In this document: positions 46,341 through 50,159 of the stretch, in pieces
Layout: each line of letters opens with the position of its first letter
Position numbering within the stretch: the first letter of the stretch is position 1
Source of the DNA: Eledone cirrhosa
Taxonomy: Eukaryota
Direction of reading: 5' to 3'
DNA: 64,000 nt
Assembly: GCA_964016885.1 (NCBI GenBank)
Contig: OZ024744.1
Coordinates: 108,810,001-108,874,000 of the forward strand
Position numbers and translations under genes: made by a program
Notes under the pieces: model-generated
The model's database searches: none
What the model was told of the DNA's origin: nothing
What the model saw: only the letters and a program-made list of their open reading frames with translations

Positions 46341-46930
46341 AAAAGACCCTAAAAACATTTAATGTCAACCCGCAGCAATGGACCTACTTTTCTACTGACC
46401 GAAATGCTTGGCGCATTCGAGACAAACCATCGTGTAAGCCAGGAGGAGAGAGCTGGGAAGGGTTGGGTGAGGATGGAGCAAAGCGAAACAAAGATATTTC
46501 GCTTGGTGTGTATATGTAAGTTTCGGACGCTAGTCCTTCAGCAGAAAATAGAATGAGAAATTAAAGAAGAAATAGAAAGATAGAGGAGAGTGAGGAGGGG
46601 AAGAAAGGAATAAAATTTCTTTATGAAAAATAGCTGAACTATTCATTTCGCCATCACTTGGGTGTGTGTGTGTGTGTGTGTGTGTGTGTGTGTGTGTGTG
46701 TGTGTGTGTGTGTGTGTGTGTGTGTGTGTGTGTGTGTGTGTGTGTGTGTGTGTGTGTGTGTGTGTGTCACATCTCGCGAAATGTTAAGGGAAGTTCAGGT
46801 ATATTTAGCACACCTTGAATATAAATTGAGAGCAACGATTGATAAATATTTACAAAATAGGTAAAAAAAATGAATAAATAAAATAGAAGAAACAGACTGA
46901 CAGTAGGCAGATTGACAGGGGACAGATAGA

Positions 46931-47211
46931 TATGTTTCCTTATTTGCCACAAGGGTGTACATTACAAGAAATGGGACATTACAAGACGTGACGGCAGGGT
47001 TTTACATGAAATCGTATAAACTTTAACATTAATAAATTAAAATAAACTATATATTAGAAATTAACAATTGAAATCCCCAATAGGGGGTGGGGGCGTTACT
47101 TCAGGGTTGTTTTACACCCCGTGGATAGAAGAACCCTCAACACCAGGAGCACGTTTTGTAGGTGTTCCCGTCTTCCCTCTTGTTGTCTTGCTCAACCTAC
47201 AGGTTTATATA
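46931..47211 (-). mobile_element. Tx1 copy D (3' UTR, copy-A subfamily)
   Basis: Colinear with 12211-12560. Preceded on the plus strand by GACAGATAGA. Confidence 0.9.
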
Positions 47212-47215
47212 AGAT

Positions 47216-47419
47216 AACTTTCTTTTTATTTGCCACCAGGGCATCAAAGAGTGGGACAAGTACATTGGGGGGAGTTTACATAACAAGGCGTCCTCAATAA
47301 GGAGGAGGCAATAACAAGATATAACAAAAAATATATAAAATATAACAAAAATAAATTTAATAACAAAATCCTCAATAGGGAGGAGGCGCCTTGGGGGGTC
47401 GCACACACCCCCGAAAAAA
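47216..47419 (-). mobile_element. Tx1 copy E (partial 3' UTR, divergent subfamily)
   Basis: Shares the TTTATTTGCCAC..GGGC, CAATAGGG and CACCCCCG motifs. 5' break lies at TAGATAGATAGATA. Confidence 0.75.
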
Positions 47420-47432
47420 TAGATAGATAGAT

Positions 47433-47675
47433 AAATTCCTTTATTAGCCACAAGGGCACAAAAGAAGGGGACAAATACAAATGGGGACTTTACATACAGG
47501 TATATGAAAATAAAACTATTAATAAAATAACAAATAACAATTGAAATCCCCAATGGGGGGAGGCGTTACACAGGGGTTGTACACACCCCGAAAAAAATGT
47601 ACAACCCTCATCTCCAGGAGCACCAAGAGTGAGTACTCCCTTCCTCTCTTCCTCTTTTTCCTCAACAGGCTTATA
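47433..47675 (-). mobile_element. Tx1 copy F (3' UTR)
   Basis: Same motif order as the other copies. Flanked by TAGA repeats and a TA/TAGA tract. Confidence 0.85.
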
Positions 47676-47727
47676 TATATATATATATATATATATATAT
47701 AGATATATGAATAAATAGATAAATAGA

Positions 47728-48427
47728 TATATTTCTTTATTAGCCACAGGGGCACAAAAGAAGGGGACAAATACAAAGGGGGAAGTTTACATACAATAAA
47801 AACGTGTAAAATGTTATCACAAATGGAATTTAAAAGTTAGTCGATTTTCCCCAATAGAGGGAGACAGTTTATATGGGTAACACATACCCCCGAAAAAAAA
47901 TGTGCAACCCTCATCTCCAGGAGTACGAAGAGTTTGTACTCCTTTCCTCTCCTCCTCCTTTTCCTCAACCTACAGGCTGATATAGAGAGAAGGCCCATTC
48001 ACTCGGGCCATTCTCGCCGCTTTCACCCACCTTTCATAAAACTTGCTGGGGTACAGCACCTCTCTCTCCATCCTGATTCTTCTTCCAAAGTGGTATTTGA
48101 AAAAAAGAATCAGTTGTTGGCCGGAGAGAAAGGTGTCTGACCTCAGCCCTTTCAACCTTGTCCACCATACAACCTCTTTCGCCATAGCTATCACACAAAG
48201 GAAAACCGCCTCTCCTTCGTTTTTGAAGGAGGGTGGCGGTTTGATCATGACAATGGACTCGGTGGTCAACTGGATTGGTCCCACCCGCGACAATAGTCGT
48301 TCTACATAGCCCCACAGGTCAGTGACGCCCGGGCAGTGTATGAATGCGTGCGCGACGGTTTCTTCGTCTCGCACGCACCTCGGACAGATCTTTTTTGCAG
48401 GGTCCCTGCCCGGGCGCCCATGTCTGT
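47728..48427 (-). mobile_element. Tx1 copy G (ORF2 CCHC end plus 3' UTR)
   Basis: YRHGRPGRDPAKKICPRCVRDEETVAHAFIHC...GPSLYISL*. 5' break adjoins a long (ATAG)n at 48429-48527. Confidence 0.92.
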
Positions 48428-48587
48428 AATAGATAGATAGATAGATAGATAGATAGATAGATAGATAGATAGATAGATAGATAGATAGATAGATAGATAG
48501 ATAGATAGATAGATAGATAGATAGATAGGCGGACATGTAAGACAGGTAGACAGACAGACAGGTAGACAGACAGACAGATAGACAGAT

Positions 48588-48928
48588 ACATTTCTTTATT
48601 AGCCACAAGGACGCACAAGAAAAGGTGACAATACAAAGACATGCCGGGGATTTTACATACAGTTGTGTAAAAAATATAAAAAAACAAACAATTACAACAA
48701 TGGAAATCCCCAATAGGGGGGAGGCGTCACAAATGGGTTGTTTAATACCCCGTCGATAGAACAACCCTCAACTCCAGGAGCGTGTTGTGCAAGTGCTCCT
48801 TTCTTCCTTTTGCTCTCTTCCTCAACCTACAGGCTTATATACAGAGAAGGCCCAATCACTCGGGCCATTTTCGCTTCATTCACCCACCTTTCAGTAAATT
48901 TACTGGGGTGCAGTGCCTCTCTCTCCAC
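48588..48928 (-). mobile_element. Tx1 copy H (copy-B subfamily 3' end)
   Basis: Near-identical to 17341-17680. 5' break adjoins AGATAGACAGATA. Confidence 0.92.
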
Positions 48929-50159
48929 AGATAGACAGATAAATAGGCAAACCGACACACAGGTAGACAAAGATATTTCTCATGTGCCGTAACCAGTTTA
49001 ATTTTCTTTAAAAATACATAAAACTAAACAAGAAAAACACTCGGAAAGAAGAAATAAGAAGAAATAAGAAACAAGTACAAATAATTATAATTATTCAGTT
49101 GATATAATTAGCAAGTTTATATGTAAAACAGAATATAAATTAATCGCTGTACTTTTCCACCTTTTGCCTTCTTCCTTCTGTCTTTAAAGGTGTGTTAGTT
49201 TGTGTGTGAGTGTGTCTATATATATATATGTGTGTGTAAGTGTGTGTATGTGTGAGTATGTGTATGTGTGTGTAGTAGTATGTCTGTATTTACGTCTGTG
49301 TATGTTTGTGCGTATGTGTGTGTGTGTGTCTGTATTTACGTCTCTGTGTGTGTATGTGTGAGTGCGTATGTCTCTGTGTGTATGTCTGTCTGTGTGTGTG
49401 TGTGTATGTGTTTGTGTGTGTGTGTGTAGTTGTATGTCTGTATTTACGTCTCTGTGTATGTTTGAGTGTGTGTGCGCGTGTATATCTATGTACACGTAAT
49501 TACGTGTTTGTGTACCTCTAAATGCGTGTGTGCAAGTGTATTGCGTGATTGTGTGTCAACGTGTGTGTATGTAAATGACTATGTGTGTGTGTGTGTGTGT
49601 TATAATTTATGTATAGTCTTTAAATTGAAAATTAAAAGGTGAAATCTCCCCACCCCCACCGTCACGCCTTCCAAATATAGAGGGCGGCGGCGGTGTGGGA
49701 GGAGGAGGAGGAGGAGGAGGAGGGATATAACACCCACACACGTACAGAACTTGTGACGTCAATTGAGAAGACTGCGAAAAGTTACTTTCTCTACTGCTTC
49801 CGTCATACAAGTGTAGCGTTCACACACATACGTGTACACACATACGTATACACATACGTAAACACATACGTGTACACATACGTAAACACATACGTACCAA
49901 CAGAAATGCCTATACTTATATATATATAGGTATAGTTATATATATATAGGTATAGTTATATATATATAGGTAGAGTTATATATATATATATAGGTAGAGT
50001 TATATATATATAAGTATAGTTATATATATATATATAAGTAGAGTTATATATATATAAGTATAGTTATATATATATAAGTATAGTTATATATATATAGGTA
50101 GAGTTATATATATATAAGTATAGTTATATATATATAAGTATAGTTATATATATATAAGT

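Follow-up and report, generated by a model that had tools for sequence, protein, structure and literature searches.

An Array of Divergent L1/Tx1-Type Retrotransposon Copies at a TAGA Microsatellite of the Octopod Eledone cirrhosa

Introduction

The stretch of DNA considered here is a 64,000-nucleotide segment of the genome of Eledone cirrhosa (GenBank assembly GCA_964016885.1, contig OZ024744.1, positions 108,810,001 to 108,874,000 of the forward strand), which we call the window and whose own numbering is used throughout. It is repeat-rich animal DNA with many TA and GT tracts, and it carries nine copies of a retrotransposon lacking long terminal repeats (non-LTR), designated A to H and C2, all nine in a single orientation within two arrays and none elsewhere. 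The first array (12212-23420), which supplies our reference copies, consists of A, B, C2 and C joined through TAGA-type spacers. The second, our main subject, consists of five 5'-truncated copies (D-H) that lie head to tail on the minus strand between 46933 and 48928, with their 3' ends pointing left (Table 1). Its best explanation, in our view, is that of an insertion sink of an octopod long interspersed nuclear element (LINE) of the L1/Tx1 type that prefers a particular sequence, and the array probably arose as copies entered a (TAGA)n tract again and again by target priming, with the tract restored on each occasion.

Table 1. Features of the two arrays and of the arms that bracket open reading frame 2 (ORF2); UTR, untranslated region; TSD, target site duplication; Y, pyrimidine; R, purine.
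Feature	Position	Strand	Description
Left outer flank	46888-46932	+	Degenerate (YAGR)n ending AGATA; primer side of D
Copy D	46933-47211	-	3' UTR and last ~10 nt of ORF2; A-type subfamily
D/E spacer	47212-47216	+	AGATA, 5 nt; minimal target unit, candidate TSD
Copy E	47217-47419	-	Distal 3' UTR only; most divergent variant
E/F spacer	47420-47433	+	(TAGA)3TA, 14 nt
Copy F	47434-47677	-	3' UTR, truncated ~10 nt inside ORF2, same point as D
F/G spacer	47678-47729	+	(TA)n, then degenerate TAGA ending AGATA; 52 nt
Copy G	47730-48428	-	3' UTR and open 152-amino-acid ORF2 C-terminus with partial zf-RVT zinc finger
G/H spacer	48429-48588	+	(TAGA)25, then degenerate CAGA/TAGG with short non-repeat interruption; 160 nt
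Copy H	48589-48928	-	3' UTR and last 33 ORF2 codons; B-type subfamily
Right outer flank, 5' side of H	48929-48973	+	AGATAGACAGATA, then degenerate YAGR
Copy A	12212-17330	-	Long, truncated in ORF1; ORF2 with 4 stops
Copy B	17344-22670	-	Apparently full length; 5' end abuts TAGA/GA tract
Copy C2	22874-22918	-	~45-nt copy, additional to the first array as earlier described
Copy C	22941-23420	-	22-nt TAGA spacer to C2; outer 5' junction abuts AGATAGATAGA
B upstream arm	20596-20674	-	ORF1 end, stop, 41-nt spacer; complementary to 3' UTR arm 17503-17579
A upstream arm	15964-16044	-	Same region as B arm; complementary to 12465-12548

Anatomy of the Second Array

Alignment of the window, together with boundary calls that leave the 5' ends of D-H uncertain by 1-4 nucleotides (nt), bears out an earlier note on this DNA, which had described five co-oriented, contiguous copies separated by TAGA-type sequence. 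That note gave the spacers as AGATA, (TAGA)3, a TA/TAGA tract and a long (TAGA)n plus (CAGA)n; the first three stand, and the last is not pure, its long uninterrupted tract ending at 48528. The (TA)n of the F/G spacer grew from the element's own TATATA. As a separate candidate, later insertion into the internal TATATA of D or F was considered and rejected, as the missing 5' parts were not found across the site. Copy E is truncated at 47419, since a contig of the public sequencing run X8 carries the element on past that position. The truncation point common to D and F is suggestive, but with so few copies it could be due to chance. The zinc finger of G was recovered by Pfam at E 4.5e-4, below the curated cut-off.

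The array appears to be embedded in older repeat sequence. Its left flank holds six YAGR words in 45 nt, a density reached by 0 of 52,940 background windows (3 of 53,044 once the last 13 nt are set aside), and the right flank is likewise matched by 0 of 52,940, or by 415 of 53,044 past its first 13 nt. Within the G/H spacer, the older part (48529-48588) contains 11 YAGR words, which 0 of 52,820 background windows attain. The two flanks and this older part read as one old degenerate microsatellite that has been split at two points.

Divergence Among the Copies

The five copies are not close relatives of one another. In all ten pairs within D-H the 3' UTRs are only 70.7-82.9% identical, and that of E is 65-81% identical to those of the other copies. 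The closest matches lie in the first array: the 3' UTR of D is 91.1% identical to that of A, and the 3' UTR of H is 93.9% and 93.5% identical to those of B and C, respectively, with 88 of 89 nt at the end of ORF2 shared between H and B. A tree of eight 3' UTRs groups A with D (100/99, starred) and A, D, B, C and H together (98/100, starred), joins B, C and H at a node drawn open (89/92), and places E on a long branch. At the protein level, A, B and G cluster together (100/100) inside a nine-row group that includes a protein of Argonauta.

The earlier note had likened D to A and H to B, had set E, F and G apart as other variants, and had argued that tandem duplication of one copy would not suffice; the pairwise 3' UTR comparison that it proposed agrees on each count. 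Duplication of a single copy cannot yield the array because D-H diverge from each other while D matches A and H matches B, and local tandem duplication more generally is ruled out by the low identity within D-H as against 91-94% for the sisters across arrays. Public sequencing runs under three species labels contain the family in abundance, with 10,564 (X5), 180 (X8), 735 (X1) and 30,102 (X3) contigs, where contig depth is no copy number. Because of this abundance, and because D, E, F and G are each represented among the contigs, the variants behave as real subfamilies.

Target or Tail

At 9 of 9 3' ends the element meets AGATA in phase, at a distance of 7 nt from the terminal AATAA in eight copies and of 9 nt in E; AGATA occupies 35 of 26,642 positions outside the satellites and the elements. 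Taken alone, this pattern fits an encoded tail as well as it fits a target. One may thus suppose that TAGA is a 3' tail encoded by the element, and that the arrays stem from jumps of the reverse transcriptase between templates, off one RNA and onto another's 3' end, or from insertion at the tails of earlier copies, with little preference on the part of the endonuclease. The fixed phase and the absence of poly(A) at all nine 3' ends fit such a tail equally well, every long YAGA tract in the window adjoins an element, and the 5-nt D/E spacer is what a template jump would be expected to leave behind.

It is the other end of the copies that separates the two explanations. At least two in-register YAGA units adjoin each outermost 5' junction (C at 23421, H at 48929), a situation seen at 36 of 26,602 positions of the background, and the full-length copy B likewise has a YAGA repeat next to its 5' end. 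An encoded tail does not account for TAGA on the outer 5' sides of H and C, where no upstream element is present to provide one: a terminal-motif scan found no decayed element 3' end behind either copy, the best scores ranking 369 and 7,408 of 53,440, so that hidden 3' ends on these flanks can be ruled out. Nor does it account for the old degenerate repeat inside the G/H spacer, and template jumps in one event would require the RNAs of five subfamilies at once. Public contigs add three cases in which other truncation points are joined to TAGA and a 3' end (one of the 15 joints listed, of 375, and two of the 12 rows listed, of 249), namely 48090 to 47420 and 46955 to 46924 in X3 and 47835 to 47419 in X5, under two species labels; the other joints among those listed are mostly jumps between homologous places of neighbouring copies. 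We regard these three joints as supporting but not decisive. The outer 5' junctions of H and C, the sequence beside the 5' end of B, the YAGR-rich flanks and the public joints support the idea that TAGA serves as a target rather than just as a tail, and we consider the encoded tail an unlikely account of the arrays.

Two further regularities were sought at the 5' junctions and rejected: a fixed phase, by the misfit of G and C2, and strong microhomology as a rule, most junctions showing 0-2 nt. The spacer between B and C2 contains a (GA)n tract, and no junction lies within (GA)n. Tracts of at least three YAGA units number 11 in the window, and all 11 are on the plus strand at the two arrays, with none on the other strand.

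The endonuclease offers a possible basis for such a preference. Its hairpin loop, a feature that helps to set specificity, is equally long and almost identical in sequence in A, B and a related protein (P0093), and is longer in 7 of 9 more distant proteins examined. The likeness fits a target preference common to the subfamilies. A structure model of the endonuclease, predicted from one sequence, was too poor to use (predicted local distance difference test score, pLDDT, 39). Since subfamilies about 25% apart in DNA use the same junction and the same hairpin loop, the view that the preference is shared and old is supported. The earlier note had proposed repeated, independent insertion of different subfamilies under an old, shared preference; the target and the shared junction hold, while the independence of the events and the absolute age of the preference are what we infer rather than observe. 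The same applies to the independence of the four internal junctions, and the 5-nt junction between D and E also fits a template jump.

Probable Repeated Insertion and Its Rivals

Built on the anatomy, divergence, junction sequences and domains, which can be observed directly, the following scheme would account for the array. The APE endonuclease of the ORF2 protein (ORF2p) would nick the (TAGA)n strand, the plus strand of the window, of a TAGA/CAGA microsatellite, probably at a TpA step. Nicking would release a 3'-OH at the end of an AGATA sequence, from which reverse transcription would be primed at one constant position of the RNA, 7 nt past the AATAA signal, and because of this constant start no poly(A) would be copied; either UAUCU in a read-through RNA pairs with the primer, or reverse transcription starts inside the RNA. 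Synthesis would usually stop early, leaving a 5'-truncated copy. A cut of the second strand within the same tract would duplicate repeat units and so restore the target on both sides, and later copies, including those of other subfamilies, could enter the restored site in the same orientation. Slippage would lengthen some spacers. The old degenerate tract may have been used in this manner at no fewer than two points, for D-G and for H, 160 nt apart. We hold repeated insertion of this kind to be probable.

Several observations weigh against it. The presumed TSD cannot be separated from the repeat tract, and the AGATAGA present on both outer flanks (46923-46929 and 48929-48935) is indistinguishable from the tract itself. 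The phase at the 5' junctions varies, being exact for D and H, compatible for C, E, A and F, and off by 1-2 nt for G and C2. The independent tests come down to two outer 5' junctions in one window, beside an 18-kb satellite. The public joints were aligned at 85% likeness, and repeats can create false joints. Under a 31-letter rule, no contig among those listed bridges an internal junction, and five scans of metagenome, prokaryote and viral contigs revealed no empty orthologous site; nor did these five scans yield a confirmed relative.

The nearness of the satellite, about 590 nt away, lends itself to another explanation, namely that a weakly selective LINE piled up passively in satellite-flanking DNA of low recombination, with deletions or unequal exchange between TAGA tracts drawing scattered copies together. 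The family is very abundant in two of the public runs (X5 and X3), and a precedent has been proposed for Waldo-A/B of Drosophila (PMC3812793). A passive pile-up nonetheless presupposes TAGA on both sides of the copies, and it leaves unexplained why nine of nine copies lie in two co-oriented arrays with in-phase junctions; we judge it improbable.

Least probable is an assembly artefact in which contigs of different loci were mis-joined through TAGA tracts, for although the pure tract 48429-48528 is long and the internal junctions are unbridged in the contigs listed, mis-joins would hardly arise through spacers as short as 5 and 14 nt, a second array of the same grammar lies in the window, 66% of the sampled words of the stretch are present in X5, which is possibly the source sample, and an exact public record covers 46770-46953, running over the left flank and 21 nt into D. 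The public-run comparison extended up to the G/H tract, and its zero cover in bins 47682-47738 and 48423-48450 reflects skipped repeats and is uninformative on the junctions.

Identity of the Element

Copies A and B match Exo_endo_phos (E 1e-12), RVT_1 (E 3.9e-13) and zf-RVT (E 1.4e-5, just under the cut-off) in Pfam, and all six sequence matches of the endonuclease in PDB are L1 endonuclease constructs. The ORF2 of B, with its endonuclease, reverse transcriptase and zinc finger, is broken by stops, frameshifts and a deletion; given these stops and frameshifts, the ORF2s of A and of B are both dead. A fragment of the A ORF2 shares 59% identity with an Argonauta hians protein, and an old gene model of Octopus bimaculoides begins, at its N-terminus, with part of a related ORF2; these matches would by themselves make an octopod host most likely. 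ORF1 of B is likewise broken; it carries one CCHC knuckle (CX2CX4HX4C) and its stop lies 41 nt ahead of the ORF2 ATG. No Pfam match was obtained for ORF1, and atlas leads scoring below 0.9 point to RNA-binding domains of the zf-CCHC/ZCCHC3 type. Judged by these sequence features, the element is an L1-group (L1/Tx1-type) non-LTR retrotransposon of the APE type.

Truncation at the 5' end affects 8 of 9 copies, and the 3' end is intact in all nine. No 3' end carries poly(A), and AATAAA is present in 7 of 9, with TATCT 6-8 nt further on. Mammalian L1 typically has a poly(A) tail, and because none of the nine ends does so the element is not a mammalian-type L1; the absence of poly(A) does not bear on the wider L1 group. 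The ORF1 knuckle and the target preference point to Tx1, a clade of which the element is a putative member; the protein tree holds no named Tx1 row, and no protein labelled Tx1 is among the matches listed.

In O. vulgaris, 80 L1-Tx1 families make up 56 Mb, and 13 of these were recently active (Bonar et al., 2026; PMC13282606). The present element, which shares both repeat class and animal group with them, is probably one of these octopus 'L1-Tx1' repeat families. As a separate observation, an ORF2 fragment of 63% identity (P0056 / P0090) has been deposited as a protein of a Herbaspirillum metagenome-assembled genome, on a 1.8-kb contig, and this is probably animal DNA in a bacterial bin.

Comparison With Known Systems

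Microsatellite targets have been described for several members of the Tx1 clade, including (TC)n for Kibi, (TTC)n for Koshi and (TTCC)n/(TTTC)n for crocodilian Tx1 (Kojima, 2015; PMC4494074). The same work takes a target preference to mean that more than 20% of flanks are of one type; here, in one window, TAGA-type sequence is present at all nine 3' flanks and at both outer 5' flanks. The present element resembles these in being an APE-type non-LTR element found in a short microsatellite, and differs from them in its octopod mollusc host, in the lack of poly(A) at nine of nine ends and in a candidate duplex that brackets ORF2. Its junction repeat is TAGA/TCTA, as opposed to the (TC)n or (TTC)n of Kibi and Koshi, and it works like target-specific LINEs of the Kibi/Koshi type but is none of those. 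Co-oriented tandems like those seen here have been attributed to sequential insertion in the case of SINEU-3, which is mobilised by Tx1 (PMC4494074).

Beyond this clade, Waldo (ACAY), Mino (AC), Dong (TAA) and Togen (TG) are microsatellite-specific non-LTR elements (PMC3812793, PMC4640811). They too use a multicopy microsatellite as a safe target, but they belong to the R1 clade or possess a restriction-like endonuclease, and their repeats are others. A closer parallel for the arrays themselves is offered by R1 in Drosophila, where target preference and TSD together give tandems by double insertion (McGurk and Barbash; 10.1101/158386). Regeneration of the site and tail-to-internal junctions of differently truncated copies are common to both cases, whereas here five subfamilies occupy one site and the target is a microsatellite prone to slippage. 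As the general mechanism is known, an array such as D-H is an outcome to be expected of a target-specific LINE.

The targets named in the passages of a 2013 review are ACAY, AC, TC, TTC and TAA, with TAGA absent from them (PMC3812793), and (TG)n was added by Kojima and Jurka (2015; PMC4640811). Neither target preference nor tandem arrays are reported in the relevant portions of the octopus L1-Tx1 papers (PMC13282606, PMC8967140), and the corresponding portions of three others contain nothing further on targets (PMC11203168, PMC9004415, PMC3747384). In a literature search that did not extend to Repbase, we found no TAGA- or GATA-targeting Tx1 and no target specificity of an octopus Tx1. The TAGA target and the octopod host look new, and the array mechanism was already known.

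These findings would establish (TAGA)n as a target of L1/Tx1-type elements among the cephalopods. Both LINEs and microsatellites abound in cephalopod genomes, and the findings suggest that the lineage makes and breaks part of the GATA/TAGA microsatellite load there, a matter of relevance to marker design and repeat annotation. Since the arrays record several subfamilies at one site, the order of the latter may be datable. Work on endonuclease specificity would gain a further APE enzyme whose target is defined.

Complementary Arms Around ORF2

A profile built from the eight 3' UTRs also matches, in inverted orientation, the sequence upstream of the ORF2 start codon, with E 2.5e-5 in B and E 2.6e-3 in A, so that in both long copies ORF2 is bracketed by an imperfect inverted repeat of about 80 nt. 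Between the 90 nt before the ATG and the 90 nt after the ORF2 stop, the pairing energy is -75.1 (A) and -73.0 (B) kcal/mol, as against -35.6 +/- 4.7 and -33.1 +/- 4.8 kcal/mol for shuffled controls, of which 0 of 500 reach the observed value in either case; the best among other windows of the same element (468 and 488) is -52.5 kcal/mol. These own pairs are stronger than swapped ones (-65.5 and -66.9 kcal/mol). For the B arm, however, pairing with H, F or G is stronger (-81 to -83) than with its own 3' UTR, and pairing of the A arm with D, the sister copy of A, is weak (-61.4). Among 38 column pairs common to A and B, 34 are unchanged, two are changed on one side and two on both; 10 of the 62 pairs of A and 6 of the 58 pairs of B do not hold in the other copy. 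When inverted repeats were sought without gaps, A yielded no more than a 14-nt piece of the duplex, and the 25 of 30 pairs listed for B contained no part of it. Local hairpins of the 3' UTR, as modelled, could compete with the long-range duplex.

The complementarity is real, and with two sequences the duplex is a candidate and any function of it a lead. E ends near the 3' edge of this duplex, and D and F end about 10 nt past its other edge. Were the duplex to form, it would juxtapose the ORF2 start and stop, gate re-initiation at ORF2 or loading of ORF2p in cis, and set truncation hot spots at the ends of E, D and F; it may also bear on the open question of how ORF2 of LINEs is translated. No description of an ORF2-bracketing duplex in any LINE was found in the literature searched, and a review of re-initiation covers ORF2 translation in SART1 and L1 without, in its pertinent sections, a duplex between 3' UTR and spacer (PMC5972666). 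The combined proposition, that an octopod LINE both targets and breeds (TAGA)n through pairing of a poly(A)-less tail with the primer, with a conserved duplex of about 80 nt between ORF1 stop/spacer and 3' UTR, we advance only tentatively, as a doubtful possibility.

Two splice-like sequences coincide with this region. The ORF1 stop lies within a donor-like AAG|GTAAGT (20630-20640 and 16000-16006, minus strand), and the sequence at the ORF2 stop, when read in antisense, resembles a strong acceptor, with a pyrimidine tract and CTACAG|G (17545-17585 and 48795-48832, plus strand).

Other Features of the Window

The long copies harbour repeats of their own. Within the A-rich part of the 3' UTR of A, a 15-nt unit has grown to 7.2 perfect copies (12312-12419), and B has two perfect hairpins in its 5' UTR or ORF1 (22378-22428 and 21859-21890), the one in the 5' UTR with a 22-bp stem and 7-nt loop, and a second at the ORF1 break with a 15-bp stem and 2-nt loop. 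The window also holds two satellites, each about 94% homogeneous: one of a 17-bp unit at 1-5974, at least 6 kb long, and the 18-kb satellite of a 32-bp unit at 28384-46340. On the minus strand, a frame of 118 amino acids (25637-25993), for which no Pfam match was found at E 0.01, resembles by eye what we take to be the GIY-YIG end of a Penelope-like element.

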